64,000 nt of DNA from Chitinophaga pinensis (GCA_945901065.1 CAMDKI010000004.1:103247-167246), one strand, 5' to 3'; counted from the first letter of the stretch, positions 14,241 through 50,800 are shown. The notes: generated from the sequence alone by a model not told the origin. Program-made: numbers and translations.

Positions 14241-14392
14241 TTGTTAGTTAAGTACAATAAATATATAGTGTGCTTTGTGGCATAAACATTGGGCAATGTG
14301 GCAGTTCACGTGGCTATTGTTGTGCATTTACGCTACATTTTCTTATTATTGAGAGCTCATTTATTACCAGTACATAAAATCCCCAACAAGAA

Positions 14393-19659: not shown

Positions 19660-19698
19660 TATTCATGCAACTAAACAAATCTTCCTATCTTTATACAA

Positions 19699-20004: not shown

Positions 20005-20582
20005 AAAAGTTGATGGCTATACCCGAGCTGGAGAACTTTTACTTGGTTGGAGGCACTGCCCTATCGTTATATTACGGACATCGGCTTTCTATCGATTTGG
20101 ATTTGTTCAGCACTAAAGATTTTCAACCAGAAGAGCTTGCCAAAATATTGGAAACTCGTTTTTCAGGTTTTGCATACACTATATCAGATAAAGTTGGCAT
20201 ATTTGGCTTTATTGAGGATGTGAAGGTTGATTTTGTAAAGCATCATTATTTTGAAACGATTAGCCCAGCATCAGTTTTTGATGGCATAAGGCTGCACAGT
20301 GTAAATGATATTGCTGCAATGAAGATTGCCGCTATTTTAAAACGGGGGGTAAAAAAAGACTTTTGGGACATAGCTGAAATCTTGCAACATATTAGTTTAT
20401 CTACGATTATTGACCTTTATCATCAAAAGTACCCTAGCCAACAACTGCTTATTTCCATTCCTCAAGCGTTAACATACTTTGATGATGCTGAAGAAAGTGC
20501 AATGCCAGTAAGCCTAAAATCGCAAGAGTGGGAAGGTATTAAACAAATAATCAAAGAAAGCGTGAAAGAATACTTGCAATAA
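19959..20582 (+). CDS. nucleotidyltransferase AbiEii/AbiGii toxin family protein
   Basis: 207 aa. FYLVGGTALSLYYGHRLSIDLDLF is the typical N-terminal nucleotidyltransferase motif (GG-x-A + H-R-x-S-x-D-x-D) of the DUF1814/AbiEii family. Confidence 0.75.
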   Translation: MLHYSTIEPRTLEILKKLMAIPELENFYLVGGTALSLYYGHRLSIDLDLFSTKDFQPEELAKILETRFSGFAYTISDKVGIFGFIEDVKVDFVKHHYFETISPASVFDGIRLHSVNDIAAMKIAAILKRGVKKDFWDIAEILQHISLSTIIDLYHQKYPSQQLLISIPQALTYFDDAEESAMPVSLKSQEWEGIKQIIKESVKEYLQ

Positions 20583-20589
20583 ATGGATA

Positions 20590-20688
20590 TACTACTACGC
20601 CCGCAAATCGCAGTAGGGCAAACCCTATGCAGTGGGTATGTTTATGCAGTTTGGGTTGGCGTATGAGCCTGGGCAGGGGTTGAGGTAG
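20590..20688 (+). pseudogene. displaced, decaying copy of the last 99 nt of the GH105 gene
   Basis: 20590..20688 matches 19561..19659 with 5 mismatches in 99 nt. One of them turns codon CAG into TAG (…AAA TCG CAG TAG…), so this copy cannot encode the C-terminus. Confidence 0.85.
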
Positions 20689-20765
20689 AATGTTAACTTA
20701 AATTTTACGACATAAAATTTCGTTAGCTGTTGAATAATGGGTAATTATACCTATTCAAGTATTTA

Positions 20766-23747: not shown

Positions 23748-23771
23748 GGGTTTATTATTAGTTGATTTGTT

Positions 23772-23796
23772 ATTAACTTGCCTCGCCTTGGGCGAA
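23772..23796 (-). repeat. inverted copy of the CTCGCC-CAA-GGCGAG / GCAAGCTAAT element
   Basis: The reverse complement of 23772..23806 reads CCAATCAACC TTCGCCCAAGGCGAGGCAAGTTAAT. The core differs at 1-2 positions from the groES-upstream unit. Confidence 0.75.
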
Positions 23797-23906
23797 GGTT
23801 GATTGGAAAGGCCAAAGGCCATTTTAAGCTCCTCCCCATTTTAGGGGGAGGTTGGGAGGGGGTAATGGTCGGGCGCTACATTTGCCTTTCTATTATTACC
23901 CTTGCC

Positions 23907-30359: not shown

Positions 30360-30489
30360 CGGATTTTCAATCCAAATGATGGAGCTACGGATTCGTAATT
30401 CGTTTAATTGCGGGCACATATTTCACTACTGGTGTTGCGGGCGGATTACAAATCCGCAGCTCGGTTGCGTCGGATTATAAATCCGACGC
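30360..30489. repeat. four GGATT-N-AATCC-type hairpins (two degenerate, two intact)
   Basis: CGGATTTTCAATCCA (30360..30374, degenerate), ACGGATTCGTAATTCGT (30387..30403, degenerate), GCGGATTACAAATCCGC (30441..30457) and GCGTCGGATTATAAATCCGACGC (30467..30489, 10-bp stem). Confidence 0.8.
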
Positions 30490-32401: not shown

Positions 32402-32739
32402 GCTTGCCTCGTTTCAAACGAGGGACCACAGTCCACCGTCCATGGTCGACAGAAAAAAGAATGCAAGTTGGATAGAGATTAAAAATTCAAAATTTAAAAT
32501 TCAAAATTAGGAATGAGCGTAGGTTATACCGCCGTTCAAAAACTTTTAACTTACTTTGTTTCTGTCAGTGACTAGTGAATAGTAACTAGCGACTAGATAT
32601 AAAAAAGACTCATTAAACATTTAAGCGCAGTGCTGATTTTTTTCGCTTCGAAATACACCTCCCTAACCCTCCTTCCTAGGAGGGAAGTGTTGTTGGGTAT
32701 TTTAAAGTCTTGATACTTGATACTCAATACTCAATACTG
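32402..32739. repeat. cluster of four different heptamer arrays plus two hairpin elements in one divergent intergenic region
   Basis: GCTTGCCTCGTTTCAAACGAGG hairpin (32402..32423). Four arrays: 32424..32451 (GACCACA GTCCACC GTCCATG GTCGACA), 32483..32510 (AAATTCA AAATTTA AAATTCA AAATTAG), 32566..32600 (CAGTGAC TAGTGAA TAGTAAC TAGCGAC TAGATAT) and 32709..32739 (CTTGATA CTTGATA CTCAATA CTCAATA CTG). Palindrome CCCTCCTTCCTAGGAGGGAAG around 32668..32690. Confidence 0.85.
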
Positions 32740-34333: not shown

Positions 34334-34789
34334 TCACTCTGGCTTAAAACCAACATCATCCAACCACGGACCGCCTTCGGCAGCAGCAACGGCCAGTTGG
34401 TCGCAGCGCTCATTTTCGGGGTGGTCGTTATGACCCTTTATCCATCTAAACTCAACCTTGAATTTTTTGGCAACGGCCAAGTATCGGCGCCAAAGGTCCT
34501 CGTTTTTTTTGCCCACAAAGCCTTTTTTTACCCAGCCAAACACCCAACCCTTACTCACAGAATCGACCACATACTTGCTATCCGAAAATACCCTTACCGT
34601 TAATCCTTCGCGAGTAAGTGCTTCAAGGCCTTTTATCACGGCCATCAATTCCATGCGGTTGTTAGTGGTGTGTTTGTATCCTTCGGCAAGCTCTTTTTCG
34701 TGGCCTTTATACCGCAATATAGTGCCATAGCCACCCCTACCAGGGTTGCCTTTTGCCGCGCCATCTGTATACATTTCCACTAAATCCAT
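34334..34789 (-). CDS. rnhA: ribonuclease HI
   Basis: MYTDGAAKGNPGRGGYG…TTNNRMELMAVIKGLEAL…VFSDSKYV…KGHNDHPENERCDQLA carries the D-E-D-D catalytic pattern of RNase H1. Confidence 0.93.
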   Translation of the reverse strand: MDLVEMYTDGAAKGNPGRGGYGTILRYKGHEKELAEGYKHTTNNRMELMAVIKGLEALTREGLTVRVFSDSKYVVDSVSKGWVFGWVKKGFVGKKNEDLWRRYLAVAKKFKVEFRWIKGHNDHPENERCDQLAVAAAEGGPWLDDVGFKPE

Positions 34790-34887
34790 GTTGCAAAGGT
34801 AAGGGGTTTATCAGCATTTTCCTGACCCATCGATTCAATTGTTGGGACGTTTACCTATTGTCATTTGAATGTTTAATAGCTATATTC

Positions 34888-35478
34888 ATGGCTATGAAAA
34901 GTATCTGTGTGTTTTGCGCCTCAAGCCTTGGGGAGCGGGAGGATTACCGGCAAGCAGCCGAAGCGGTGGGCAGTATATTAGCCCGCAACAATGTTAGATT
35001 GATATATGGCGGTGCCAAGGTGGGCCTTATGGGTGCCGTGGCCGATGCTGCGCTAAAAAGCGGCGGTAAAGTAACTGGTGTACTGCCTCATTTTTTGGCA
35101 GGCAAAGAGATAGCCCATACCAATTTGAGTGAATTAATTTTGGTAGAGAGCATGCACGAGCGTAAGCAGCAAATGTCGCAAATGGCCGATGGCTTTATTG
35201 CCTTGCCCGGCGGTTTTGGTACGTTGGAAGAACTGTTTGAAATCATTACTTGGGGCCAATTGGGCCTGCATCACAAACCAGTATTAGTGCTCAACATCAA
35301 TGGCTATTACGACCACTTGATAAAACTCCTCGACCACATGGCCGCTGAAGGTTTACTGAAAGAGCGCCACCGCCGAATGATGTTATTTACCGATAGGGTA
35401 GAAGATGCCTTAAACGAAATGCTGCACTACAGCCCGCCGGTGATTAATCCGCTCATTGATAAACACAGTAAGACATGA
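34888..35478 (+). CDS. LOG family protein (TIGR00730-type Rossmann fold; cytokinin riboside 5'-monophosphate phosphoribohydrolase-like)
   Basis: Trimmed to the ATG at 34888 (MAMKSICVFCASS…). IYGGAKVGLMGAVADAA and LPGGFGTLEELFE (PGGxGTxxE) are the family signatures. Confidence 0.88.
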   Translation: MAMKSICVFCASSLGEREDYRQAAEAVGSILARNNVRLIYGGAKVGLMGAVADAALKSGGKVTGVLPHFLAGKEIAHTNLSELILVESMHERKQQMSQMADGFIALPGGFGTLEELFEIITWGQLGLHHKPVLVLNINGYYDHLIKLLDHMAAEGLLKERHRRMMLFTDRVEDALNEMLHYSPPVINPLIDKHSKT

Positions 35479-35516
35479 AATAGGAAATGAAAAATAAGAA
35501 ACAATAAATAAGAAAC
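35475..35516. repeat. six in-phase degenerate heptamers (AAGAAAC type) starting on the stop codon
   Basis: ATGAAAT AGGAAAT GAAAAAT AAGAAAC AATAAAT AAGAAAC. The TGA stop of the LOG gene is at 35476..35478. Confidence 0.75.
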
Positions 35517-35690
35517 ACTTAGTATATAGTGCTTCCCTCCTAAAAAGGAGGGGCAGGGGTGGTGTAATTCGTCGAGTTGAACATGAGATTGCCAATAGTA
35601 ACATTGCGAGTGAATAGCATCAACTCGCAATTGTAGTACGCCAATCATAAACCAGCTTTAATTAGACAATTTCCTACCTGTAGCAAGCAA

Positions 35691-35762
35691 CACCTCCTCA
35701 TCCCTTCCTTCGACCTCGTTTAAAACGAGGCTCAGGACAGGCTCTTTTTAGGAGGGAAAATG
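35691..35762. repeat. partial copy of the 43070..43220 element (47-nt shared core with CTCGTTT-N-AAACGAG hairpin)
   Basis: 35702..35748 (CCCTTCCTTCGACCTCGTTTAAAACGAGGCTCAGGACAGGCTCTTTT) versus 43081..43127 (CCCTTCCTTCGATCTCGTTTGAAACGAGACTCAGGACAGGCTCTTTT). There are 3 differences: one in the loop and two forming a compensatory T-A to C-G stem pair. Confidence 0.85.
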
Positions 35763-35785
35763 TTATGTCCAAATTGCAATAAGAT

Positions 35786-36979
35786 TTAAACTAACTTCTC
35801 AAGCGCAGCTTTAATCCTCGCACAAGCTTCAACCAACTGTTTATCGCTAGCGGCGTAGCTGATGCGCACACACTCCGGTGAGCCGAAAGCAGCACCTGAT
35901 ACCAGGGCCACGTGAGCCTCGGCAAGTAGGTACAACGACAAATCGTCGGCATCTTTCAATACTTCGCCATTGTAGGTCTTACCAAAATAAGCACTCACAT
36001 CAGGGAACAAATAGAAAGCGCCCGGAGGGGTATTGGTTTTTAGGCCTGGTATTTCGCTCAATAAGGCAATTACCATATCGCGGCGGCGGTGAAATTGGTC
36101 GCGCATATCATAGCTAGGCTGCATGTCGCCATTCAGTGCCGCTTCAGCTGCCTTTTGGGCAATGCTGCAGGTAGCGCTGGTAAACTGACCCTGTAGTTTG
36201 TCGCAAGCCTTGGCAATCCATAGCGGAGCACCAATGTAGCCCACGCGCCAGCCGGTCATGGCAAAGCCTTTGGCAAAACCGTTTACGGTAATGGTTTGGT
36301 TGTAAATTTCAGGAAACTGGGCAATGCTCTCATGCTTGCCATCAAAGTTGATGTATTCATAAATCTCATCCGACACCACATATATTTCTGGGTGTTTGGC
36401 CAATACCTTTGCCAAGCCAGCTAACTCTTCTTTGGTATATACCGAGCCAGAAGGGTTGCAGGGCGAGCTAAACATTACCATACGGGTTTTAGGCGTAATA
36501 GCTGCCTCTAGTTGCTCCGCGGTTATTTTAAAGTCTTGGTCAATGGTGGTGAAAATGTTTACCATTTTGCCCTCGGCCAACTCTACCATAGCGGCATAGC
36601 TCACCCAATATGGTGCCGGAACAATTACTTCTTCACCAGGGTTTACCAGGCAAAGCACCACGTTAATGAGACTTTGTTTGGCGCCAGTAGAAACTACTAT
36701 TTGCTCAGGAGTATAATCCAACCCATTATCACGTTTAAACTTGGCTTGTATAGCCTTGCGTAGCTCAATGGTGCCCGGCACGGCAGTATAAAAGGTAAAG
36801 CCTTCGTCTATGGCTTTTTTGGCCGCTTCGCAAATATGTTTTGGGGTTACAAAGTCAGGTTCGCCAAGGCTAAGACTAATAATATCATGGCCTTGGGCTT
36901 TCAATTCGCGACCCAATTGGGCCATTTTAATGGTAGCTGACTCGTGTAAGTTGGCAATCCTGTCTGATAAATGGGGCAT
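35786..36979 (-). CDS. pyridoxal phosphate-dependent aminotransferase (aspartate aminotransferase class I/II)
   Basis: Trimmed to the ATG at 36979 (MPHLSDRIANLHESATIKM…). LSLGEPDF, NPSGSVY and the GFAKGFAMTGWRVGY (SxSKxxxMxGxRxGY-like lysine motif) fit the AspC/AAT family. Confidence 0.9.
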   Translation of the reverse strand: MPHLSDRIANLHESATIKMAQLGRELKAQGHDIISLSLGEPDFVTPKHICEAAKKAIDEGFTFYTAVPGTIELRKAIQAKFKRDNGLDYTPEQIVVSTGAKQSLINVVLCLVNPGEEVIVPAPYWVSYAAMVELAEGKMVNIFTTIDQDFKITAEQLEAAITPKTRMVMFSSPCNPSGSVYTKEELAGLAKVLAKHPEIYVVSDEIYEYINFDGKHESIAQFPEIYNQTITVNGFAKGFAMTGWRVGYIGAPLWIAKACDKLQGQFTSATCSIAQKAAEAALNGDMQPSYDMRDQFHRRRDMVIALLSEIPGLKTNTPPGAFYLFPDVSAYFGKTYNGEVLKDADDLSLYLLAEAHVALVSGAAFGSPECVRISYAASDKQLVEACARIKAALEKLV

Positions 36980-37114
36980 ACCGCTGTTTTTTTGTTCGAA
37001 ATTAGGGATTGCGGCGCATAAAACACTTATTATTTTTGAAGTTGTGATATTCTCGCCATTGGGTGTTAATTTTATCCAGTTGCAATTGCCGAATTTTTGA
37101 AAATACAACCCCTA

Positions 37115-38383
37115 ATGACCCGTAAAAACAAGCTCATTACTGGAGCTGCCGTGTTGGTAGCAATTGCCGCGGTTTATATATTCTATCCATCATCAGGCTT
37201 AGATACCGAGCTAGATGGTCTTCGTATTGAAGAAGAAATGCAGAAACAGGCCGAGTTTTTGTATGGCATTCCGAAAGGAGAATACAACACCATACAAGAT
37301 AAGGTAAAGCCGAACCAGAATTTGGCGAGTTTACTCTCGGCCCACGACATAAACCCGGGTAATATTGTAACCCTTTCAACCAAGTACGAAAACGTATTCG
37401 ATACCCGGTCTATGAAATTTGATAGGCCTTATACCATCATGGTTCGCGAATCGGATACCATGAAATCGGCGGCATATTTAATTTACGAGAAATCGAACAT
37501 TGAGTTTATAGTTTACGATTTAGAGCACGACACCGTATATAAAGGCAAGAAAGAAGTAAGCGTTCAGCGCAAGCATTTTGCCGGCACCATTACTTCCAAC
37601 TTGTCGGAAACCTTGCAAGATGCTGGGGTTGATGTGGCATTGGCATACAGCATGGCCAGTATTTACGATTGTACTATTGATTTTTATAAGTTGCAGCAAA
37701 ACGATTTTTTTAAAGTGATTTACATTGAGAAAATGGTAGAGGGCAAATATGTGGGCATTGATAAAATCGAAGCGATTGAGTTTACGCACAACAGTAAGCC
37801 GTTTTATGCTTTCTACTTTGAGCAAGACGAGGTGGGCAATTATTTTGACGAGAAAGCGCAAAACATGCGCAAGGCTTTTCTTAAAGCCCCTTTGAAATAC
37901 GGTTACCGCATCAGTTCTAAATACAATAAAAATCGCTTGCACCCTGTGTTGAAGGTTAATCGCCCACACTTGGGTACCGATTATGCCGCAGCGCATGGCA
38001 CCCCCATAATTACCGTGGGCGACGGCGTGGTATTAGAGGCCAGTTTTACCAAAGGCAACGGCAACTATGTAAAAATAAAGCACAATGGTACTTTTACCAC
38101 CCAATACTTGCACATGAGCAAGTTTGCATCGGGCATAAAGCCAGGCAAGCGCGTAAGCCAAGGCGATGTAATTGGTTATGTAGGTAGCACTGGTTTGGCA
38201 ACTGGCCCACACGTTTGTTTCCGTTTTTGGAAAAACGGTGTGCAGGTCGATCCGTTTAAGGTAATGCCACCGCCAGCCGAACCAGTTGCCAAAAAGAATA
38301 TGGAGCGTTTTAATAAACGCGTTGCCGTTTTGAAAAAAGAGCTTGAAGGTATTGGTAAAGAGCTGACAGCAAGCCTAAAGTAG
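37115..38383 (+). CDS. M23 family metallopeptidase
   Basis: Trimmed to the ATG at 37115. An N-terminal TM anchor is followed by HLGTDYAAAHGTPIITVGDG, YVKIKHNG, and GYVGSTGLATGPHVCF (HxxxD and HxH metal-binding motifs of LytM/M23). Confidence 0.88.
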   Translation: MTRKNKLITGAAVLVAIAAVYIFYPSSGLDTELDGLRIEEEMQKQAEFLYGIPKGEYNTIQDKVKPNQNLASLLSAHDINPGNIVTLSTKYENVFDTRSMKFDRPYTIMVRESDTMKSAAYLIYEKSNIEFIVYDLEHDTVYKGKKEVSVQRKHFAGTITSNLSETLQDAGVDVALAYSMASIYDCTIDFYKLQQNDFFKVIYIEKMVEGKYVGIDKIEAIEFTHNSKPFYAFYFEQDEVGNYFDEKAQNMRKAFLKAPLKYGYRISSKYNKNRLHPVLKVNRPHLGTDYAAAHGTPIITVGDGVVLEASFTKGNGNYVKIKHNGTFTTQYLHMSKFASGIKPGKRVSQGDVIGYVGSTGLATGPHVCFRFWKNGVQVDPFKVMPPPAEPVAKKNMERFNKRVAVLKKELEGIGKELTASLK

Positions 38384-38488
38384 TTTGTGCGGTTAGCTAC
38401 CGGTTTTTATAAAGTGCGCAATATGTAAAGTTACTTTTACGTTCTAGTTAAATAGCGTAGCTTTAGATTACCAACTATCAATACTGTT

Positions 38489-38929
38489 ATGAAAATTCCT
38501 GCCCCGATTTTCATACTACTTAGCGTTTTTTTGCTGAGCATGTGTGCATGCAACAAGTACGATGAAGGCCCTGCCTTTTCATTGCGAACCAAGACTTTTA
38601 GAGCTACCGATAATTGGATTGTGACCGATGCCCAGCGAAATGGATTGGATGTAACCTCCAGCGTGCGAATGAACGTGAACTTGCGCGCTGATGGCACCAT
38701 GGTATATACCGATACTATTGCAGTTGCCGCAGGCGACTCAATATCAAACCGCCAAGGGGTTTGGGAGTTTGACCGCGATGCTGAGAACCTCTTGATTGTG
38801 TTTACCGACCCAGGTGGCGGCAATGTATCAGCCAGAATTTGGTATATTTTGCGCTTATCGGTGGGTCAACTGTGGGTTACAGAAAGTGTTGGCGAAAACT
38901 TGTATCGCTACGAATTTGAACCTAAATAA
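38489..38929 (+). CDS. hypothetical lipoprotein
   Basis: 146 aa. The signal peptide has Cys residues at the lipobox position (FLLSMCACNKYD). No family recognised. Confidence 0.55.
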   Translation: MKIPAPIFILLSVFLLSMCACNKYDEGPAFSLRTKTFRATDNWIVTDAQRNGLDVTSSVRMNVNLRADGTMVYTDTIAVAAGDSISNRQGVWEFDRDAENLLIVFTDPGGGNVSARIWYILRLSVGQLWVTESVGENLYRYEFEPK

Positions 38930-39732
38930 TGCTTACACCATTAAAGTCTTTCTTGCTACTAGCGTTTATTGCCTCGAGTTTGCAATGTATGCCGGTATTC
39001 GGTCAAATTGTTACCGACGATATTGCGGTTCCGCCACCAAGTAATATACCTGCCAAAAAGAATCGCAACAACGACAGACCTACCAAGCAATTGTTTTTGC
39101 TGCTCAATGCCGGTTTAGCTTCTCCGCTAGGTATTTTCGGTTCTACCAATATTCTAGAGGAAGATGCTGTTTTTGCCAAAACAGGCATAAACCTCAGCCT
39201 TAATGTTGGCCGAACCTTTAACCGTTATGTGGGGCTTACTGCTACAGGCGGGCTTATAGTGCAAACCAATAAAATGGCCCAGATTGTAGACAACTACAAT
39301 CGCTATGGCCCACCTGGCTCATATATATTGGCATACGACTACCCAGGTATGCGGTTTTATTATTTGGCAGGCGGCTTGTTGGTTACAGTGCCGGCTACTA
39401 ATCGGTTTTCTATTGATGTAAAGCTGCAAGGTGGCATGGCGCTGGGTGTAGATAGGGAGCTAACGCTGCAGATTGATAACGGACTTGGCACCATAATAGA
39501 AAAGTATGGCAAAGCCAGCGACATCGCTTTTCTGCCCGATTTGGGCTTAAACTTTAGGTTGTTGGTTACCGACAACTTTACTATGAATTTCTTTACCGAT
39601 TTTGTAATGGCCAACTTCAAATTTAAGGACGTAACCTACTACGAAAACGGCGTACCACTGGCTACCTACGACTACGACCTGCCCATGCGCAACCTCAATG
39701 TAGGCATAGGAGCGGGGTGGAGTTTTAAGTAG
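38929..39732 (+). CDS. hypothetical outer-membrane beta-barrel-like protein
   Basis: 267 aa. The start ATG overlaps the upstream TAA (TAATG). It has a signal peptide (LLLAFIASSLQCMPVFGQ), alternating beta-strand pattern and a C-terminal aromatic residue (…GAGWSFK). Confidence 0.55.
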   Translation: MLTPLKSFLLLAFIASSLQCMPVFGQIVTDDIAVPPPSNIPAKKNRNNDRPTKQLFLLLNAGLASPLGIFGSTNILEEDAVFAKTGINLSLNVGRTFNRYVGLTATGGLIVQTNKMAQIVDNYNRYGPPGSYILAYDYPGMRFYYLAGGLLVTVPATNRFSIDVKLQGGMALGVDRELTLQIDNGLGTIIEKYGKASDIAFLPDLGLNFRLLVTDNFTMNFFTDFVMANFKFKDVTYYENGVPLATYDYDLPMRNLNVGIGAGWSFK

Positions 39733-39772
39733 TCCACAGTCCACAGTCCACAGTCCACAGTCCACAGTCGAT
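39731..39772. repeat. AGTCCAC heptamer x5 (+1 degenerate) starting on the stop codon
   Basis: AGTCCAC AGTCCAC AGTCCAC AGTCCAC AGTCCAC AGTCGAT. The TAG stop of the upstream gene is at 39730..39732. Confidence 0.9.
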
Positions 39773-39812
39773 GGCGAGTAGCTTATAGCATATGGTTCGT
39801 TGTACCCCAAAA

Positions 39813-39900
39813 ACCCTCGCCCAAGGCGAGGCAAGCTAATACCCCTCGCCCAAGGCGAGGCAAGCTAATAACCCTCGCCCAAGGCGAGGCAAGCTAATAA
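39813..39900 (+). repeat. three tandem 28-30-nt units ACCCTCGCCCAAGGCGAGGCAAGCTAATA, each a 7-bp stem hairpin
   Basis: Units at 39813..39840, 39841..39870 and 39871..39900. Each has the stem CCTCGCC/GGCGAGG with a CAA loop. There are no unique spacers between units. Confidence 0.9.
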
Positions 39901-39925
39901 CCAATCAACCAATCAACCAATCAAC
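39901..39925. repeat. CCAATCAA octamer x3
   Basis: CCAATCAA CCAATCAA CCAATCAA C, directly following the third 30-nt unit. Confidence 0.85.
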
Positions 39926-39972
39926 TGCCACCTTTACAGCCCGGAACTGCAATTTTGGCGCATTATGCCAGT

Positions 39973-39988
39973 TGGCACAACTAATGCT
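39973..39988 (+). promoter_or_regulatory. sigma-54-like -24/-12 motif upstream of groES (speculative)
   Basis: TGGCAC AACTA ATGCT. GG and GC have the canonical 12-nt register of TGGCAC-N5-TTGC, and the -12 element ends 42 nt before the groES ATG. A TACCTTTA (near TAnnTTTG) box also lies at about 39999..40006. Confidence 0.25.
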
Positions 39989-40029
39989 ATAGGCAAAGTA
40001 CCTTTAAAACGATAAAAACATAAAACAAT

Positions 40030-40305
40030 ATGGCTGTTAACATTAAACCCCTTGCAGACCGCGTGCTGGTGAAAGCCGACGCCGCCGAAGAAACCACCAA
40101 GAGTGGCCTATTTATACCCGATACGGCTAAAGAAAAGCCAATGCGTGGCGTAATAGTAGCCGTAGGTGCGGGCAAAAAAGACGAACCAATGACCGTGAAA
40201 GTGGGCGACAAAGTATTGTATGGCAAATATGCTGGCACTGAGTTGACCGTAGAAGGAGAGGAGTTCTTGATTATGCGCGAAAGCGACATCTTCGCCATCC
40301 TTTAA
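40030..40305 (+). CDS. groES: co-chaperone GroES
   Basis: 91 aa: [48 protein letters not shown]…, the canonical Cpn10. Confidence 0.97.
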
Positions 40306-40308
40306 TTT

Positions 40309-40343
40309 GGTTACGGGTTCCGAGTTACGGGTTGCGAGTTTGC
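40309..40343. repeat. five in-phase degenerate heptamers (GGTTACG type)
   Basis: GGTTACG GGTTCCG AGTTACG GGTTGCG AGTTTGC, starting 4 nt after the groES TAA (40303..40305). Confidence 0.8.
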
Positions 40344-40362
40344 AATAAACCAACGACCAGTA

Positions 40363-40390
40363 ACCCTCGCCCAAGGCGAGGCAAGCTAAT

Positions 40391-40392
<2 letters not shown>
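40363..40392 (+). repeat. fourth copy of the ACCCTCGCCCAAGGCGAGGCAAGCTAATAA unit (groES-groEL spacer)
   Basis: Identical to the 39871..39900 unit by eye. Confidence 0.9.
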
Positions 40393-42097
<1,705 letters not shown>

Positions 42098-42135
42098 GCT
42101 ACATCGTCCGGCTTTAAAGCCTGATAATCATTTTA

Positions 42136-42177
42136 ACGCCCCCATTTCTTTTAGTAGAGATGGGGGCGTTTTTTTTG
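42136..42177 (+). terminator. intrinsic terminator of groESL
   Basis: Stem ACGCCCCCAT (42136..42145) / ATGGGGGCGT (42160..42169), followed by a T8 run. Confidence 0.85.
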
Positions 42178-42194
42178 GGTTTGGGACCCCTGCC

Positions 42195-42285
42195 CACCCT
42201 GCCCATTCGGATTTGTAATCCGAATGTACTGAGCACCGGATTTGCAATCCGGCACATACTATGTAAACGAACCTCACACGCACAC
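42195..42285 (+). repeat. ~90-nt double GGATT-hairpin element
   Basis: GCCCATTCGGATTTGTAATCCGAATGTACTGAGCACCGGATTTGCAATCCGGCACATACTATGTAAACGAACCTC. It is collinear with a degenerate copy at 45641..45725 (GCCCATTCGGGTTTATAATTTGAGTGTAAGAGCACCTGATTTGTAATTCGGCACTTACTTCGTAAATCAACCTC). Confidence 0.85.
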
Positions 42286-42392
42286 TCCCGTTGCTTGTTG
42301 TAACTAACATTTGGCAAGGGTAGCGGCATATTCATTGGCAACAATTGATTAATTTTAGGTGTTATTCTTCGTAAAGTTTTCAATTGCTGGGT

Positions 42393-42914
42393 ATGTTTAA
42401 ATCTTTTTTGCCGCTGCTGTTTGTGGGTATCATGTTAACGGCTTTCGTGGCTCCTGTGCCAGTTACCGATAGTGTTATCGAGATTCTTCAAGGTTCTAAA
42501 AAGGTGTTTAACTTTTCTGCAGGGCTAAAGTCTGCCGAATTGGTAACAATGTTGGAGGGTAAAGGTCCGTATACTATTTTTGCGCCGCTCAATACCGCTT
42601 TTGCCAAGTTACCCGCGGGTAGCCTTGAGAACTTGTTTAAACCCGAAAACAAAACTACGCTCACCAGCCTGCTCAACTACCATATAGTGCCCTTGCAACT
42701 CACCAAAGCCGACTTGGTTGCAGGGATAAACCAAGGCAATGGAAAAATGATACTCAAAACCATGTTGGGCAAAACCTTAACGGCTACCTTGGCCGATGGC
42801 AAATTGCAATTGACCGATGCACAGGGCACTATAGCCTACATTACCTATGCCGACAAATTGGGCACCAACGGTGTGGTGCACTTTATTGATGGCGTGCTTA
42901 TGCCGGCCAAATAA
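42393..42914 (+). CDS. fasciclin domain-containing protein
   Basis: Trimmed to the ATG at 42393. After the signal peptide come YTIFAPLNTAFAKLP, LLNYHIVP and NGVVHFIDGVLMP, the FAS1 H1/YH/H2 motifs. Confidence 0.85.
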   Translation: MFKSFLPLLFVGIMLTAFVAPVPVTDSVIEILQGSKKVFNFSAGLKSAELVTMLEGKGPYTIFAPLNTAFAKLPAGSLENLFKPENKTTLTSLLNYHIVPLQLTKADLVAGINQGNGKMILKTMLGKTLTATLADGKLQLTDAQGTIAYITYADKLGTNGVVHFIDGVLMPAK

Positions 42915-42932
42915 ACATATATCTGCTTGATC

Positions 42933-42994
42933 CACGCAATCGGATTTCTAAATCCGCCCTTTCAAATTCCCAAATCCAAATACTAGATTGCGTG
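42933..42994. repeat. 9-bp inverted repeat (CACGCAATC/GATTGCGTG) enclosing a CGGATTTCTAAATCCG hairpin
   Basis: Arms at 42933..42941 and 42986..42994, with the internal hairpin at 42941..42956. Confidence 0.7.
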
Positions 42995-43069
42995 ATGTAG
43001 CATCTGGCAAATACCAGGTAAACGAACTACTTGTTAATGCTTGTAAAGAGTGTCCCCTGCCCGCACTAA

Positions 43070-43220
43070 CCACCCCCAACCCCTTCCTTCGATCTCGTTT
43101 GAAACGAGACTCAGGACAGGCTCTTTTGCATCCGCTCAAAAAGGCCATTCGAAGCCTGCCTGCGGCAGGCAGGCTTCGCCGAGCCAGTGCAGCGCTGGCA
43201 AAAGGAGGGGTTGGGGGTGG
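43070..43220. mobile_element. 151-bp MITE-like non-coding element with perfect 15-bp terminal inverted repeats
   Basis: CCACCCCCAACCCCT (43070..43084) and AGGGGTTGGGGGTGG (43206..43220) are exact reverse complements. Inside are the hairpin TCTCGTTTGAAACGAGA (43093..43109) and the 27-nt palindrome GAAGCCTGCCTGCGGCAGGCAGGCTTC (43151..43177). There is no coding capacity, and the track ORFs across it read both strands of the palindrome. Confidence 0.6.
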
Positions 43221-43233
43221 TTGCACATAATTC

Positions 43234-43270
43234 AAAAAAAAACACCCCGCTTCAATAAAGAAACGGGGTG
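43234..43270 (-). terminator. intrinsic terminator of the M43 protease gene
   Basis: The minus strand reads CACCCCG-TTTCTTTATTGAAG-CGGGGTG followed by T9 (the plus-strand A-run at 43234..43242). It lies 29 nt after the stop at 43299. Confidence 0.75.
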
Positions 43271-43298
43271 CTCGGGTATGGTTTAATGGAGGCGGGTG

Positions 43299-45260
43299 TT
43301 ATTTCGCAATCATTACTTTCTGCACTTGTTTTACTTGGTTGTTGTTTTTGATGGCTACAAAATAGAAGCCATTTTCTAAGGCGCTAAGGTCGATGCCAGT
43401 GTTAAACTCGGCTTCAACGCTACCTAGCGCTTGCGCAAATACTACACGGCCAGCAATGTCATAAACCTGTACGTTGGCATTTTCCATGCTTTCGGTAGTA
43501 AAGATGCTGATGTTCAATTTGCCATTGCTTGGGTTAGGTGCCAAGGTTAGGTCGAAAACCGAAGGCTTGTCATTAGCCAAATCCAAATCGGCAGCATCAG
43601 TTGCGTCATCGGCACCAACCCTAAAGTTGGTAGCGCTAATGCTTGCAGTTAGTGTATAGCAATTGCTAGCATTAAATGCACCACCACTGCCCAATACGCG
43701 GATAGTATAGGTACCAACAGAGTTGGTGTTATAAGTAATCGTCTCGTTGGTAGTACCAGTGTTTTGAGAAATGGCAACTTGGTTACCTCTAGAGTTGTAC
43801 AACACTACATTGTAGTTGGCTGGCAAATTAGTCAAAGTTATTCTTATGCGGCGTTGGGTACTGGTGTTCGCAAACTTAAAGTAGTCATTATCGGTGCTAG
43901 TGCCAATTACTGCGGTGATGGCAGTGTTTACAGGGATGGTTTTAGCAGTCGAAATTGAATTGTTAGACTCATAAGCATCGGTGCAAGTAGCAGTAACTGC
44001 TAGGGTAGTAAAGCTGCCAGTGGTAGTATAGTTGCTACTGCCGCTGCTGCAAACGGTTTGCACTTGGTAGTTGTAAGTAGTATTATTTGCCAAGCCCGAT
44101 AGGGTAAAGCTAGTAGCACTGGTGCTTACAGTTGTGAAAGTGGCAGCCGCACTAGTTTTGTATTGTACATTGTAGCTAGTTGCACCGCTAGCTGCGCTCC
44201 AAGTAAGTGTTGCACCTGTGGTAGTAACATTGCCAGCACTTAGGCCAGTTGGGCTATTGCAAGCGGCGATATTTCCAGGTACACAACCCAATGAGTTAAG
44301 CAATGAAGCCCTAAAGCCACCTGTTGCAAACAATGCTTGCATGCGCGCTTTTTGACCTTCAGTAAACATAAACATACAGGCGTCATCGGTATAGTCCATG
44401 TAGTTCATGAACAAATCTCCGTTGGGGCCATTGCTGCACGATACCGTTGGGAACGAAGGGCAGCCATAATTTTCGTCGCCTTGGTTTGGCGTGTCGGTTA
44501 CGTTATCGCTACCAGTACAACCGGTGCCATCGTCGCCCCAAATGTGGTAAAGGTTTAGCCAGTGACCTACTTCGTGAGTTGCGGTGCGACCTTTGTTGAA
44601 AGGCGCTGCAGCAGTACCGATGGTACCAAAGGCGTTGTAGTTTACTACTACACCATCGGTAGCGGCGCTGCCACCAGGAAACTGCGCATAGCCCAAAATG
44701 CCACCGCTAATGTTACAAACCCAAAGGTTTAAGTACGAGCTGCTGGGCCAAGCATTAGAACCACCGTTGGCGCTTCTTTTAACATTATCGTTAGTAGAAA
44801 ATGAGGTGTTGGTTGTTAATTTGCGAACAATACCGTTAGAAGCATTGCCATTAGGGTCGCGCTGTGCGAGGCAAAACTGCACATCAACATTGGCTACTAA
44901 ACTTTGAAAAACTGAAGGAGTATTGGTCCAGTCGGCATTTAGCTTGGCAAAATCGGCATTCAAAACATTCATCTGCGACTGTATTTGGGCATCGCTGATG
45001 TTCTCGGTTGTGGTACGATATACTACATGCACTACTACTGGTATAGTTACCAACGCCCTACCGGTATTGCCTTGAGGGTTATTGGTAATCCAGTTCTGGG
45101 TAAATTGTTCAATGTTTTGGCGATTTTGCAACACGCTTGGGTCTTGCAATATCATGTTTTGCAAGTGCTCCATAGCACCACAATTGCGTTGGGCATTGGC
45201 TGGGGCAGCACTTACAAGCAATAGCAGTACTAGGCTGATTTTCAGTAATTGTTTTAACAT
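43299..45260 (-). CDS. secreted zinc metalloprotease (M43 pappalysin/cytophagalysin-like) with FN3, PPC-type and T9SS type A C-terminal domains
   Basis: After the signal peptide comes the metzincin motif HEVGHWLNLYH (HExxHxxxxxH) followed by DTPNQ. Then an FN3-like region (LSAGNVTTTGATLTWSAASGATSYNVQYK), a pre-peptidase C-terminal-like region (DAYESNNSISTAKTI…DNDYFKF…YTIRV) and the tail LAPNPSNGKLNISIF…GFYFVAIKN…QKVMIAK. Confidence 0.85.
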   Translation of the reverse strand: MLKQLLKISLVLLLLVSAAPANAQRNCGAMEHLQNMILQDPSVLQNRQNIEQFTQNWITNNPQGNTGRALVTIPVVVHVVYRTTTENISDAQIQSQMNVLNADFAKLNADWTNTPSVFQSLVANVDVQFCLAQRDPNGNASNGIVRKLTTNTSFSTNDNVKRSANGGSNAWPSSSYLNLWVCNISGGILGYAQFPGGSAATDGVVVNYNAFGTIGTAAAPFNKGRTATHEVGHWLNLYHIWGDDGTGCTGSDNVTDTPNQGDENYGCPSFPTVSCSNGPNGDLFMNYMDYTDDACMFMFTEGQKARMQALFATGGFRASLLNSLGCVPGNIAACNSPTGLSAGNVTTTGATLTWSAASGATSYNVQYKTSAAATFTTVSTSATSFTLSGLANNTTYNYQVQTVCSSGSSNYTTTGSFTTLAVTATCTDAYESNNSISTAKTIPVNTAITAVIGTSTDNDYFKFANTSTQRRIRITLTNLPANYNVVLYNSRGNQVAISQNTGTTNETITYNTNSVGTYTIRVLGSGGAFNASNCYTLTASISATNFRVGADDATDAADLDLANDKPSVFDLTLAPNPSNGKLNISIFTTESMENANVQVYDIAGRVVFAQALGSVEAEFNTGIDLSALENGFYFVAIKNNNQVKQVQKVMIAK

Positions 45261-45640: not shown

Positions 45641-45783
45641 CCGCCCATTCGGGTTTATAATTTGAGTGTAAGAGCACCTGATTTGTAATTCGGCACTTAC
45701 TTCGTAAATCAACCTCCTATGCATGCCTTTGCTAATCAGCGGATTGCAAATCCGCTTCTCGGTAACGACGGATTGCAAATCCG
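45641..45783. repeat. degenerate double-hairpin element plus two intact GGATTGCAAATCC hairpins
   Basis: 45641..45725 is the degenerate homolog of 42195..42285. AGCGGATTGCAAATCCGCT lies at 45738..45756 and CGGATTGCAAATCCG at 45769..45783. Confidence 0.8.
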
Positions 45784-45797
45784 CCGTGGCGAAAATT

Positions 45798-45847
45798 AGT
45801 CTTGTGTCTTGTGTCTTGCCGGCCGGCAGGCAGGTTGTGTCTTGCGT
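45798..45847. repeat. GTCTTGT-type heptamers flanking a 12-nt palindrome, abutting the fabI stop codon
   Basis: AGTCTTG TGTCTTG TGTCTTG (45798..45818), the palindrome TGCCGGCCGGCA (45816..45827), then TGTCTTG CGTC up to the fabI stop (45848..45850). Confidence 0.7.
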
Positions 45848-47865: not shown

Positions 47866-50800
47866 ATGAAACTTAACCGTCTGCTATTGGCAGCGTGTCT
47901 ACTGACATGTTGTTTATTTTCATGGCGCGAGGCAAGGGCCTCTCACGCCGCTGGAGCTGACCTAACCTACACTTGTTTAGGTAACAACCAATACCAAATT
48001 ACGCTCACGTTCTATCGCGATTGTAGTGGTATTGCAGCACCTGCAACAGCCGCAGTATCTGTTCTCAATGGTTGTACCAACACTACCACAAACATTACCC
48101 TACAACAGCAGGGCTTTGTTGAGGTAACTCAATTGTGCCCTTCACAAATTGGCAATAGCTCTTGTAACGGAGGCAACCTACCCGGTATACAGCAGTATAC
48201 ATACACCGGTACGTTTACTTTCCCAGCGAGTTGTACCAATTTTACGTTGAGGTATGATTTGAATGCCAGGAACGCGGCAGTGACTAACCTACAGAACCCC
48301 GGTTCGGTAGATTTGTACGTTGAAGCTACTTTGCGCGGCATTACACCAAACATCTGCAACAACTCGTCTATTTTCACCTCTTTGCCCGTGCCATTTGTGT
48401 GCGTGGGCAACCAGTTTTTTTATAACCATGGTGCTATTGACGTGGATGGTGACTCATTGGTTTATACCTTGATTCAGCCATTGCAAGATCCTGGTACTGT
48501 GGTGCCTTGGGCAGCGGGCTATAGTGTAGCAAATCCGATGGCCACAACTAGCGGATTTTCTTTTAGCAATTCTACCGGTCAAATGTCAGGTACCCCAAGC
48601 ATTGCTCAAAACGCAGCTATTGCGGTTCGTGTTGATGAGTACCGTAACGGCGTGTTGATTGGTTCTACCATTCGCGATATGCAGTTTATTGCTGTAGCTT
48701 GTCCTAACAACACTTTGCCAATCGCATCGGGTGTTAACGGCAGCACGGATTACAGTATAAACGTTTGTGCTGGTAGCAACTTCTGTTTCGACATTTTCAC
48801 GACAGACGTTGACGCGAACCAAACAACCACCATTACCTGGAACTCAGGTATTAACGGTGCAACTTTTACTTCTAGCGCAGGCAATAACCAAACAGGTACT
48901 TTCTGCTGGACTCCAAGTATTAGCCAAGTGCGCACCGCACCTTACATTTTTACTGTTACGGTGCAAGATAATGCCTGCCCAAGTGTAGGTAACCAAGTAT
49001 ACTCTTACTCGGTATTTGTAGGTGGTTTGGATGTTGACCTAGGACCCGATTTGAATCTTTGTGCTACATCTGCTACTTTGAGCCCGCTGGTTACCAATGG
49101 CACTGGTGTGTATACTTATGCTTGGAGCAATGGCTCTACCGACTCAACTTTGGTAGTTACACAATCGGGCTCTTACTCAGTTACTATAACTGATGGAACT
49201 GGCTGCAGTGGAAGCAACCAAATTAATGTAAACCTTAACCCGAACGGCAACCGCAACCTTATTTCGTTTAACGATACCACTGTTTGCCCAGGTGTAGCTG
49301 TTACGTTTGATGCAGGAACAGGCTTTAGCACTTATTTGTGGAGCACTGGTGCTACAACTCAAGTTATTACCACGTCTACTCCAGGAGTGATTACTGTAGA
49401 AGCTGCTGATGCTCTTGGCTGTACTTCTCGTGATACGGTTACTTTACTTAACAGTAATAATGCAACCGTAAGCCTTGGCAATGATACTGCATTGTGCAGT
49501 GGTGGTTCATATACCTTCTTTGCTAGTCCATCTAACTTTGCATCTTATTTGTGGAGCGACGGCAGCACATCGCCATCGCTTACTGTAAACACTACTGGCG
49601 TATACTCGGTAACTGTTACTACTGCGGCAGGTTGCACCGCTTCTGATACTGCTCGCTACACTGCGTTTTCGTTGCCATCGGTGACCCTTGGTCCTGATGT
49701 GCGTACTTGTAATAGCTCTGTTACATTGCAATTGCGTCGTGCTGGTACATTTGAGTATGTATGGAGCACTGGTAGCACTTTGCCATCTATTTCGGTAACA
49801 CAATCAGGTTGGTATGGTCTTACTTTGACCGAAATTACCAGCCGTTGTGCGGCTTACGATAGCATTTACGTGAGCGTAAGTGCCTTGCCGGGCATCAACC
49901 TAATACCCGACACGTTGGTTACCGCTTGTGGTGGGATAGTGCCTGGCACCAATGGTGTAGCACTTAATGCTGTTCCGGGTTTAGGTTCTTACCTATGGAG
50001 CAATGGTGCTACTACTGCTAGCACTACTGTTTTCCAAAACGGATTGTACACCTTGACCGTAACAGATAGTATTGGCTGCACCAAAACCGATTCCATTTCG
50101 GTTGTTGCCAGTTCTGCTATTACTATTACAGACGTGAGCACCAGCCCATGCGCGCCTTCATCAGCTACTATTGATATAACTGTTGCTGGTGGTTTGGCTC
50201 CATTTACCTTTAGCTGGAGCGGCCCAAGTGGTTTCACCGCCTCAAGCGAAGACCTTTCAGGCTTGAACATTGGTACATACGAAGTAGTAGTAACCGATGC
50301 TGCGGGTTGTACAGGCAGCCACGTGGTTACGCTTGCTTTGCCTTCAATTACTATTGATGCGGGACCAGATACGGTGAACATTTGCTTAGGTGATAGCACC
50401 ACACTTTCTGCAACTGGTGCCTCTTTCTATGACTGGAACGGTGGTAGCTTGGTAAATGCTAGCGGTTCCTCTGTTTCGGTTAGTCCTACTCAAACTACTA
50501 CATATACGGTAGTTGGTCAGCAACCAGGCCAAGAGCTTGCAGCTAACGGAGATTTTGAATTGGGCAACACTGGTTTTGTTACTAACTACCAATATACTAC
50601 TACCAATTTAATACCTGAAGGTACTTATGCCGTCGTAACTAACCCAACTCCTTTGCACCCAGCCTTCCTTGGTAGCGACCACACAACTGGTAGCACCAAC
50701 TTTATGGCTATCAATGGCTCTGTTAACCCTGGTTTCAGGGTATGGTGCCAAACCGTATCGGTTATCCCGAACACGGACTATAACTTCTCTACTTGGATCA

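Follow-up and report, generated by a model that had tools for sequence, protein, structure and literature searches.

Genomic Setting

The palindromic element described here lies in a 64,000-nt stretch of DNA (the window) from an uncultured freshwater Bacteroidota bacterium. It occupies the gap where two convergent genes meet with their 3' ends, immediately past the terminator of an M43/T9SS peptidase gene; on the other side, a small hairpin that follows a fasciclin gene precedes it. A first-pass annotation, made from the sequence, had taken a 151-bp segment of this gap for a MITE-like element moved by a transposase through perfect 15-bp terminal inverted repeats (TIRs), and had seen no transposase in the window. 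An ORF scan of the 64 kb agrees with the latter, since neither a transposase nor a recombinase was detected; no transposase adjoins any copy of the repeats, and no Y1_Tnp domain occurs among the scanned ORFs of the window and the copy neighborhoods. The components of the element and of its surroundings are as follows.

43039-43228, no strand: 190-nt block, the extent of the replacement relative to L026, L027 and L012, which have a conserved unrelated 57-nt block here
43068-43222, no strand: composite palindromic element (the 151 bp plus 2 nt per side), with an outer stem of 17+2 bp and several interior hairpins
43068-43087, + strand: left C-rich arm AACCACCCCCAACCCCTTCC, the 5' arm of an 'extended' unit, also at L012 12959, L017 9973 and L006 2530
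43088-43123, + strand: 36-nt core cassette TTCGATCTCGTTTGAAACGAGACTCAGGACAGGCTC, an 8-bp hairpin (43093-43109) plus a 14-nt tail
43124-43149, + strand: alpha-type extension TTTTGCATCCGCTCAAAAAGGCCATT, common to the core-bearing units of L005 and L009
43150-43178, no strand: central palindrome CGAAGCCTGCCTGC-G-GCAGGCAGGCTTCG
43179-43203, - strand: beta-type extension, reverse strand TTTTGCCAGCGCTGCACTGGCTCGG, without core; small hairpin GCCAG...CTGGC at 43183-43199; homologous to L012 12976-13000 and L006 2545-2570
43204-43222, - strand: right arm, minus strand AACCACCCCCAACCCCTCC, the reverse complement of the left arm minus an extra T
43223-43230, - strand: GCACATAA (TTATGTGC on the minus strand), which adjoins the arm also in L012, L017 and L039
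43240-43273, - strand: intrinsic terminator of the peptidase gene; the composite starts about 10-20 nt further on

Architecture of the Composite Element

The exact 15-bp inverted repeat CCACCCCCAACCCCT is present as had been claimed, at 43070-43084 (+) and 43206-43220 (-), and has no other mismatch-free match in the window. Its true length is 17 bp (AACCACCCCCAACCCCT, 43068-84 and 43206-22), followed by a 1-nt bulge and two more pairs, and the arm unit reaches outward through GCACATAA. The element is an imperfect palindrome of about 115 nt, composed of two inverted C-rich arm units around a central 14-bp palindrome. An alignment of the left half to the reverse-complemented right half leaves one gap of 36 nt, which corresponds to the core, a hairpin cassette present in only one arm of the composite. 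A part of the central palindrome (CCTGCCTGC/GGCAGGCAGG) is a separate module that also occurs in the window at 45822-45840 and in L005. The two strong internal palindromes of the first-pass annotation were recovered, the second being GAAGCCTGCCTGCGGCAGGCAGGCTTC at 43151-43177. The predicted fold of the element closes with a stem of about 21 bp and its folding energy is far below that of shuffled controls for each strand as well as for folding as DNA (z = -8.3 to -9.3).

The Core Cassette and Its Copies

The 47 nt at 43081-43127 recur at 35702-35748 with exactly the three differences described before (T>C, a loop G>A and A>G); a repeat finder gives a longer match of 60 nt with 85% identity (35689-35748 and 43068-43127). 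The core tail CTCAGGACAGGCTC is found in the window only in these two cores (0.11 expected by chance), and three matches to the hairpin motif (32407, 35714 and 43093) stand against 0.16 expected. The third hairpin had been assigned to the same type; the hairpin exists, but it is flanked by ...GCAAGCTAT and belongs to another module family, as a stem variant of the CCCTCGCCCAAGGCGAGGCAAGCTAATAA module.

Eleven full copies of the core were found in the window and in public data (about 137 kb examined), all within a single Chitinophagales/Sphingobacteriales lineage, and no further full copy occurred in about 197 kb examined later. A genome scan returned six matches in two genomes among 185,579 species representatives, and JGI metagenomes gave two. 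The further copies that the annotation anticipated in the genome and its relatives exist for the core, in related genomes, but the scans found no second copy of the 151-nt composite; the remaining core matches belong to other architectures, either short units of about 77-88 nt or extended units. Copy number is low, all 11 copies are intergenic and the genes flanking them are unrelated housekeeping genes. The copies share a mean identity of 96%, with an almost invariant 14-nt tail, and those at window position 43088, L003 and L009 are identical; orthologous genes differ by about 3-10%. The position of the core is constant in 11/11 copies: after CCCCTTCC, before TTTT, in one orientation and inside a C-rich/G-rich hairpin shell. 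Positions 43094 and 43114, both within the core, are the break points of two independent Logan contigs, as would be the case with an exact repeat elsewhere in that genome.

Filled and Bare Shells

Related modules of the window, with and without the core, are listed below.

35691-35767, + strand: short 'filled' unit, shell CACCTCCTCATCCCTTCC, core at 35709-35744, then TTTTTAGGAGGGAAAATGTTATG; about 20 nt 3' of an aminotransferase stop codon
35524-35571, - strand: bare shell hairpin, + strand CTTCCCTCC-TAAAAA-GGAGGGGCAGGGGTGGTGT
32649-32692, + strand: second bare shell CGAAATACACCTCCCTAACCCTCCTTCCTAGGAGGGAAGTGTTG
32404-32430, - strand: the 'third hairpin' CCTCGTTTCAAACGAGG (32407-32423), of the other module family, CCCTCG..CGAGGCAAGCTAT

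The C-rich/G-rich arms also close bare hairpins (35535-35553 and 32667-32684 in the window, 145-163 in L006) and units with other fillings. The hairpin at 35535-35553 is bare in the window and carries a 37-nt core insert between identical flanks at the orthologous site of L007, a relative of about 92% identity; presence or absence of the core at orthologous shells was observed between genomes about 92-94% identical. Bare shells at various loci and in various species share the junction CC|TTT. The shell arms of L007 have diverged yet are still complementary (CTTTCTCT/AGAGAAAG vs CCTTCC/GGAGGG). In a more distant genome, the shell encloses a 25-nt filler (TTCGACAAGGGCTCAGGACGAGCTC) and lacks the 17-nt hairpin; this shell-plus-filler arrangement is an older form, with one more level of nesting. 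Short units are commonly bracketed by TA...TA. Most of them are found 20-60 nt 3' of a stop codon, and the majority point the same way with respect to the gene upstream. Of the nine short and extended units, seven are located 17-60 nt past a stop codon, and the transcript of the gene concerned contains their reverse complement. Other hairpin modules also vary among relatives, including a 29-nt module (CGCCCAAGGCG; 3, 5 and 0 copies) and a 22-nt GGATTT hairpin that occurs as an indel.

Comparison with Related Genomes

The composite is absent from the orthologous site of three relatives (L026, L027 and L012). As these relatives have a conserved 57 nt where the window has 190 nt, the difference represents a replacement and not a clean insertion, and the clean empty sites that a transposon would leave were not found. 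Target-site duplications are likewise missing: the flanks are ...GCACT and GCACATAA. The right flank, which reads TTATGTGC on the reverse strand next to the arm, accompanies the arm at L012, L017 and L039, and a relative has it beside this arm at a different locus; it is therefore a part of the unit or a shared or recurrent junction motif. A fourth relative, L017, has the same arm and flank as the window and a different interior beside the arm, with the core on the opposite arm before the contig ends 14 nt in; the terminator-side arm of the window is without core. Two assemblies from read sets of the window strain enter the element from both sides in the orientation of the window and are not broken at the repeat boundary. 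The presence of the element in some close relatives and its absence from others indicates that it is, now or recently, mobile or unstable.

Nature of the Element

The 151-nt segment is probably a composite of lineage-specific nested extragenic palindromic repeats, REP/BIME- or SDR-like, and not a TIR-defined MITE; nothing shows that a transposase moves the 151-nt element by its "terminal" repeats. A classical MITE would be a non-autonomous transposon of 151 bp, bound at its 15-bp TIRs by a DDE transposase encoded elsewhere and inserted as a unit with target duplication. This is very unlikely here, even though the perfect inverted repeats (15-17 bp, 121 nt apart), a size and a strong hairpin fold typical of Correia/NEMIS, RUP and ERIC, the absence of the element from the orthologous site of three relatives and the TA...TA that often brackets short units all agree with it. 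The composite has no target-site duplication, no second 151-nt copy among the 185,579 species representatives or the JGI metagenomes and no transposase in the window or adjoining any copy; the site of the relatives shows a 57-nt to 190-nt replacement, the core is polymorphic independently of the composite, and L017 combines the same arm and flank with another interior. The 15-bp repeats do not act as the termini of a transposable unit: bare hairpins and units with other fillings are closed by arms of this kind, and the 36-nt core is the separable part. What stands of the MITE-like interpretation is a repeated, hairpin-rich non-coding element with copies in relatives and a presence/absence pattern; the TIR-defined transposable unit does not. 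A phase-variable segment flipped by a site-specific recombinase at the 15-17-bp inverted repeats, as in the invertible promoters of Bacteroidota, is hardly credible: about 120 bp do lie between the repeats, and L017, with arm and flank followed by the core while the window has its core at the opposite end, shows what inversion would give, but a core in the other arm explains this pattern equally well. Moreover, only one orientation is seen in both assemblies of the window strain, which are unbroken at the repeat boundary, the 64-kb window encodes no recombinase, the element is placed between two convergent 3' ends, and a scan with the sigma-70 consensus, which does not cover Bacteroidota promoters, found no promoter-like site inside it.

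It was also considered that the hairpins are under selection as RNA structure, in a structured RNA or a cis-acting 3'-UTR element (an mRNA stabilizer, a processing site or an atypical terminator). The very stable predicted fold (z -8 to -9), the transcribed position of seven of the nine short or extended units past stop codons, the nearly invariant core tail, the complementary arms kept by the divergent L007 shell and one compensatory pair favor this explanation, which on balance is rather unlikely. The compensatory pair had been taken as a sign that the stem is maintained, by selection on structure or by palindrome-templated repair; across the 11 copies, however, the hairpin stem shows one compensatory change vs two disruptive, uncompensated ones, the outcome that the annotation itself had named as speaking against its claim, and a result as good is reached by 80 of 500 shuffles. 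The covariation of the core hairpin is not significant. The hairpin of the other module family has exactly the sequence of the C-G version of the core hairpin, so that the pair is explained equally well by palindrome-templated repair or by an exchange between the families. Furthermore, both strands of the element fold equally well, Rfam gave no match at the gathering threshold nor at E<=1, and the 151-nt element lies past the canonical terminator of the peptidase gene and, on the opposite side, after the small hairpin of the fasciclin gene. Unit conservation at one orthologous locus is no higher than that of most flanks, and presence/absence between genomes with 97.6% identical flanking genes speaks against an essential role. 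Purifying selection on a function, instead of mobility or conversion, could nevertheless account for the similarity of the core across species, and a 3'-UTR role would likewise agree with the placement of most short units past stop codons and with their prevailing orientation.

Possible Origin and Movement of the Modules

In the nested-repeat interpretation, the hairpin modules would be selfish or near-neutral DNA with fast turnover, spread or homogenized through single-stranded or cruciform DNA intermediates. One candidate route would involve a trans-acting enzyme that recognizes hairpins, for instance of the Y1/HUH RAYT- or IS200-like type; enzymes of this type insert at a fixed sequence and in a fixed orientation without target duplication. 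The other would be template switching or gene conversion between dispersed copies with common short arms. Short microhomologies (AAG, ATC and TATGTGC) may then be the sites of rearrangements such as replacement, arm flipping and cassette loss.

A tentative extension, which we regard as possible and not as likely, is that the 36-37-nt cassette (the 8-bp hairpin plus CTCAGGACAGGCTC) is an ultra-small mobile element, driven by a putative hairpin-specific Y1/HUH-like enzyme into the slot CCCCT(T)CC^TTTT, site- and orientation-specifically and without target duplication, with the shells as a dedicated landing pad. If so, the filled and empty orthologous shells of the 92-94% identical genomes would be snapshots of ongoing insertion or excision, and the cassette would be a Bacteroidota counterpart of cyanobacterial SDRs or single REPs. 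An AAG microhomology is present at both junctions of the 37-nt indel; as this also fits slippage deletion, bare shells may derive by hairpin-promoted slippage, and shell plus core could then be the mobile unit.

If the nested-repeat interpretation is true, uncultured freshwater Chitinophagales have their own REP/BIME-like system of nested hairpins, in which one cassette enters and leaves a fixed slot. It would provide a compact natural system to study how tiny palindromic repeats can be mobile with neither terminal repeats nor target duplications, which is still an open question for SDRs and many REP families. In practical terms, the hairpin modules break short-read assemblies, as in the two contigs that end in the core, and also mark the recombination boundaries that separate segments of mosaic genomes. 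As a lesson for annotation, hairpins enclosed by a perfect inverted repeat do not suffice to call a MITE.

Comparison with Known Repeat Systems

REPs inserted within other palindromes and mosaic intergenic regions have been reported (PMC3733652, section 7; for REPs inside other palindromes also PMC3116915). The REP/BIME and REPIN-RAYT systems of Enterobacteria and Pseudomonas resemble the element in consisting of short extragenic palindromes, of which inverted doublets form a long hairpin (the REPIN architecture), in their mosaics with other modules, their preference for gaps between convergent genes, their lineage-restricted vertical persistence and their within-genome homogeneity. The 36-nt core with its 8-bp hairpin, in 11 copies, is a short (20-40 nt) extragenic palindrome as REPs are, and the halves of the composite are inverted copies of the arm unit closed by the stem of about 21 bp, as in a REPIN. 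Unlike these systems, the element occurs in the phylum Bacteroidota, with few copies per genome among the sequences examined, nests its cassette in a shell at a fixed slot and has no RAYT among the scanned ORFs. In the inspected alignments, neither the GTAG/CGTC tag that defines REPs (PMC3733652) nor its complement was found in the core or beside the hairpin of the element, and the shells do not have a constant CTAC, as TGC, CAA and TAA also occur in its place. The lack of the tags of known REP superfamilies and a copy number that is low for a REP family count against a REP-type assignment.

Correia/NEMIS, ERIC and RUP elements, classed as MITEs (PMC3733652), share with the composite a size of 100-160 bp, terminal inverted repeats and a hairpin that spans the whole element. 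The present element differs from them in that target-site duplications are lacking, the composite is unique, the arms occur alone as simple hairpins and no cognate IS is known. Long and short forms of Correia/NEMIS, ERIC and RUP differ by a discrete internal block, and such forms are a further likeness. Invertons of Bacteroidota are similar in that short inverted repeats bracket a segment of about 120 bp, with a relative apparently in the opposite arrangement; unlike them, the element is situated between 3' ends, has no invertase within 64 kb and no sigma-70-type promoter (a consensus that does not cover Bacteroidota promoters), and shows no mixed orientation in assemblies. The SDRs of heterocyst-forming cyanobacteria, reportedly described by Elhai et al. 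in 2008 (Genome Res 18:1484) as repeats of <40 nt nested in other repeats and present or absent between close genomes, are alike in being very small nested units with such presence/absence; they differ in sequence and phylum, and the cassette described here includes an 8-bp hairpin of its own and prefers one single host hairpin.

Genomic setting and anatomy of the 151-nt element

The window lies on a 722-kb contig of a Bacteroidota MAG (ENA ERZ27280281 k141_568765; 45% G+C) encoding many T9SS-tailed proteins; in annotations its close relatives appear as MAGs of Sphingobacteriales or Chitinophagales. The 151-nt element (43070-43220) is located directly beyond the canonical terminator of a peptidase gene (43273-43240), between two convergent genes.

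Genes flanking the 151-nt element
Stop at 42914, + strand: fasciclin gene, on one side of the element
Stop at 43299, - strand: M43/T9SS peptidase gene, on the other side

The exact inverted repeats reported in the first-pass annotation were recovered (CCACCCCCAACCCCT at 43070-43084, exact complement at 43206-43220), with no further exact copy in the 64 kb; their true length is 17 bp (AACCACCCCCAACCCCT), plus two pairs past a one-base bulge. The element folds far more strongly than shuffled controls (z = -8.3 to -9.3 for DNA and for both RNA strands). Its left half (43066-43164) aligns well to the reverse complement of the right half (43165-43224), and the match spans the arm (the C-rich unit that forms the outer stem), TTTTGC... 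and the sequence up to CGAAGCCTGCCTGC, with one 36-nt gap that is exactly the core cassette (43088-43123). Two inverted "extended" units thus build up the element, an imperfect palindrome of ~115 nt, and the "perfect TIRs" are two arm copies and not transposase-substrate ends. The two units meet in a central 14-bp palindrome, a separate module also found at window 45822-45840 and in the relative segment L005. In agreement with the earlier annotation, no transposase was present among the 43 larger ORFs scanned in the window, nor any recombinase.

The cassette is confined to one arm. The core-bearing half continues into an alpha-type extension, as in the relative segments L005 and L009, and the core-less half into a beta-type extension, as in L012 (JAIXOI MAG) and L006, where it also occurs without the core; the halves are so of different subtypes. 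The claim that filled and empty arms within one element prove insertion is weakened, core-bearing arms being alpha-type and core-less arms beta-type. The 8 nt adjoining the right arm were ruled out as flank or target-site duplication (TSD) because TTATGTGC travels with the arm.

Core copies and hairpin shells

As described previously, 43081-43127 has a second copy at 35702-35748 that differs at three positions, and a repeat finder (D18) extends this 47-nt match to 60 nt at 85% identity. The tail CTCAGGACAGGCTC has only two sites in the window, one in each core copy (expected, 0.11). This second copy, a short filled unit (35691-35767), lies 20 nt past an aminotransferase stop codon; the aminotransferase gene and a LOG-family gene are convergent.

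When 185,579 species, each represented by a single genome, were scanned for the core pattern, six matches emerged: the Lake Loclat MAG bin-14753 had five and a Sphingobacteriales MAG the sixth. A JGI metagenome scan added two; the taxonomic range is narrow. Viral contigs scanned with the core, the core plus shell and the 17-nt arm yielded nothing or unrelated chance matches, plasmid BLAST with the element gave a single match by chance, and exact look-up of the GroES and fasciclin proteins for relatives returned the same genome alone.

A relaxed search of all fetched DNA brought the cores to 11 altogether, with 96% mean identity over 36 nt and three identical copies at unrelated loci in different species; their neighbors are unrelated housekeeping genes. 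The cassette occupies a fixed slot in a fixed orientation: all 11 lie in one direction within a C-rich...G-rich hairpin shell, preceded by CCCCTTCC and followed by TTT. Shells fall into two subfamilies. One is the short unit, (C)GAAYTA-CACCTCCCCTACCCCTTCC-[core]-TTTYTAGGAGGGAAGTRYTATG, some 77-88 nt long; the other is the "extended" unit starting with YGTGCWAACCACCCCCAACCCCTYCC. Bare shells leave a clean 37-column gap in the short-unit alignment.

Bare shells (core absent)
Window 35535-35553
Window 32667-32684
L006 145-163

Seven of nine short units are situated 17-60 nt behind stop codons, in one orientation, a bias that may reflect a 3'-UTR function. Special conservation of the unit was rejected: between L004 and L006 the flanks are as conserved as the unit, save for one variable 45-nt patch. 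The 5' arm of the shell (ACACCTCC...; e.g., window 35691-35700) resembles the anti-Shine-Dalgarno end of 16S rRNA, and the 3' arm (e.g., 35750-35767) carries an SD-like AGGAGG with an ATG about 8 nt further on. A mini-ORF at this end was rejected: reading frames that open at the ATG lack conservation and frequently end within 1-2 codons, so the AGGAGG...ATG likeness looks coincidental.

Filled and empty sites in related genomes

Presence and absence of the cassette was observed at orthologous shells. The Loclat MAG segment L007 is a ~92-96% identical ortholog of window 34650-42034; at the bare hairpin 35535-35553 its hairpin bears a 37-nt core insert with otherwise collinear flanks, and the counterpart of the filled unit 35691-35767 is a divergent shell whose small filling differs. 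The outgroups L012 and L025 have a 23S_rRNA_IVP gene and no shells at the site of the 37-nt indel and do not fix its polarity; bare shells may be targets or else deletion derivatives. In a more distant MAG (L020, about 80% nucleotide identity) the same shell encloses 25 nt of filler, TTCGACAAGGGCTCAGGACGAGCTC, with the 17-nt hairpin missing; the combination of shell and filler is therefore the older design, within which the hairpin forms an additional level of nesting. The 23S_rRNA_IVP genes (PF05635; L012 21486-21842, L025 10762-11118) are small islands absent from the window. Inverted low-complexity 'word' repeats flank them, and they occupy the interval from the aminotransferase to the LOG gene, where shell hairpins stand in the window and L007.

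At the site of the 151-nt element, the JGI segments L026 and L027 as well as L012 lack it and carry a conserved 57-nt block in place of 190 nt of the window (43039-43228), a replacement without duplication at the orthologous site. L026 is devoid of the element despite its adjoining peptidase gene being 97.6% identical to that of the window; its fasciclin gene is 92.9% identical, the values for L012 being 90.4% (peptidase) and 96.9% (fasciclin). Identity is mosaic on the two sides of the spacer (window 42393-45260), a pattern suggesting that close lineages have recombined homologously at a breakpoint within this repeat-rich stretch.

L017 (SRR21941334 lineage) has the same terminator, TTATGTGC and arm, followed by a core where the corresponding window arm is core-less, and the contig ends there; either the interior is flipped or the core sits in the other arm. 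In L012, a beta-type unit that likewise has the TTATGTGC lead is found beyond the fasciclin gene, on its opposite side; L039 lacks the fasciclin gene, and its TTATGTGC joins GGATT-type hairpins directly. Two Logan contigs of the window's strain from another sample stop within the core, at 43094 and 43114, which fits an exact repeat elsewhere in that genome. In the groEL-fasciclin gap of L012, an island not found in the window (12750-15040; AbiJ gene and a 298-aa ORF) adjoins the beta-type arm unit.

Stem variation and the third hairpin

The compensatory T-A to C-G change which had been taken as a sign of a maintained stem is real: it is the one double change in the 8-bp stem among 11 cores, in the 35709 copy. 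As proof of selection it failed, since two uncompensated changes occur (L008b, L010) and the observed covariation is attained in 80 of 500 column shuffles. With the C-G form, the core hairpin becomes identical to that of a separate module, CCCTCGTTTSAAACGAGGCAAGCTAT (window 32404-32430; twice in L006), a stem variant of CCCTCGCCCAAGGCGAGGCAAGCTAATAA. The motif CCTCGTTTNAAACGAGG does occur three times in the window (0.16 expected), the third site (32407-32423) being part of that module and not of a core. Palindrome-templated repair, or an exchange among hairpin families, accounts for the compensatory pair just as well as selection.

Other repeats and features of the window

The intergenic DNA of this genome is dense with small repeat modules, including several hairpin families and heptamer arrays. 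Heptamer/octamer tandem arrays with the units (CCACAGT)n, AGTATCA, CCAATCAA and GTGTCTT occur at 39733-39767, 7203-7235/7372-7404, 39903-39927 and 45795-45847, with lengths that vary among relatives; compared with the ENA assembly of this contig (L001), the window has one additional unit in its CCACAGT array. The 29-nt hairpin module CCCTCGCCCAAGGCGAGGCAAGCTAATAA forms a three-copy tandem upstream of groES and dispersed singles; the spacer orthologous to the tandem holds five copies in L012 and none in L007. Copies of the 29-nt CGCCCAAGGCG module number 3, 5 and 0 in three relatives.

Dispersed hairpin modules of the window
39807-39902, 40357-40394, 7307-7329, 23769-23800: 29-nt module CCCTCGCCCAAGGCGAGGCAAGCTAATAA
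23912-23954, 30443-30485, 42209-42251, 45741-45783: GGATTTGCAATCCG-type hairpin doublets in spacers

A single CGGATTTCTAAATCCG (42940-42957, GGATTT hairpin) directly past the fasciclin gene is an ATC-bounded 22-nt indel, present in the window and L012 and absent from L026 and L027. Direct repeats of 103 nt (19560-19662 and 20589-20691, 94% identical) bracket an AbiEii toxin and DUF6922 gene pair (19699-20582), which has a GH88 gene on one side and, on the other, the second of two PhoD-like paralogs; it has the look of a toxin-antitoxin cassette that was inserted here. Two genes encode about 1,935 aa each: ORF 8424-14240, with three 492-nt tandem repeats (11613-13068; 65-83% identity), and ORF 47866-53670, whose product is a beta-helix/T9SS-tailed surface protein.

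Nature of the element

The 151-nt segment is probably a composite of nested extragenic palindromic repeats, with REP/BIME-mosaic- or SDR-like behavior. Its units would have been spread or homogenized through hairpin or single-stranded DNA intermediates; this would be the work either of a hairpin-specific enzyme acting in trans or of template switching and gene conversion among the dispersed copies. Rearrangements may have taken place at the microhomologies AAG (37-nt indel), ATC (22-nt indel) and TATGTGC (around the fasciclin segment). It is conceivable, though we hold it doubtful, that the 36-nt cassette is mobile in its own right, as an ultra-small, site-specific element for which a dedicated hairpin serves as landing pad.

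The mobile MITE of the first-pass annotation drew on the inverted repeats, which were found, as were further core copies and absence in relatives; with no TSD, no clean empty site in relatives and no other full-length copy of the composite in the scans, it is not a bona fide MITE, and a classical MITE is quite unlikely. A structured RNA or 3'-UTR element is slightly less improbable; against it stand the covariation, no better than in the shuffles, and Rfam, where the elements had no match at the gathering threshold nor at E<=1. An inverton would account for L017 by an interior flip, one of its two readings, but both Logan contigs are in the window orientation, against a population of mixed orientation, and we consider this very improbable.

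As a composite of nested palindromic repeats, the 151-nt segment works like REP/REPIN/BIME systems, MITEs with internal length variants and SDRs; both mosaic repeat regions and REPs situated within palindromes have been described (PMC3733652, section 7; PMC3116915). Lacking the tag, it falls outside the GTAG/CGTC REP superfamilies.
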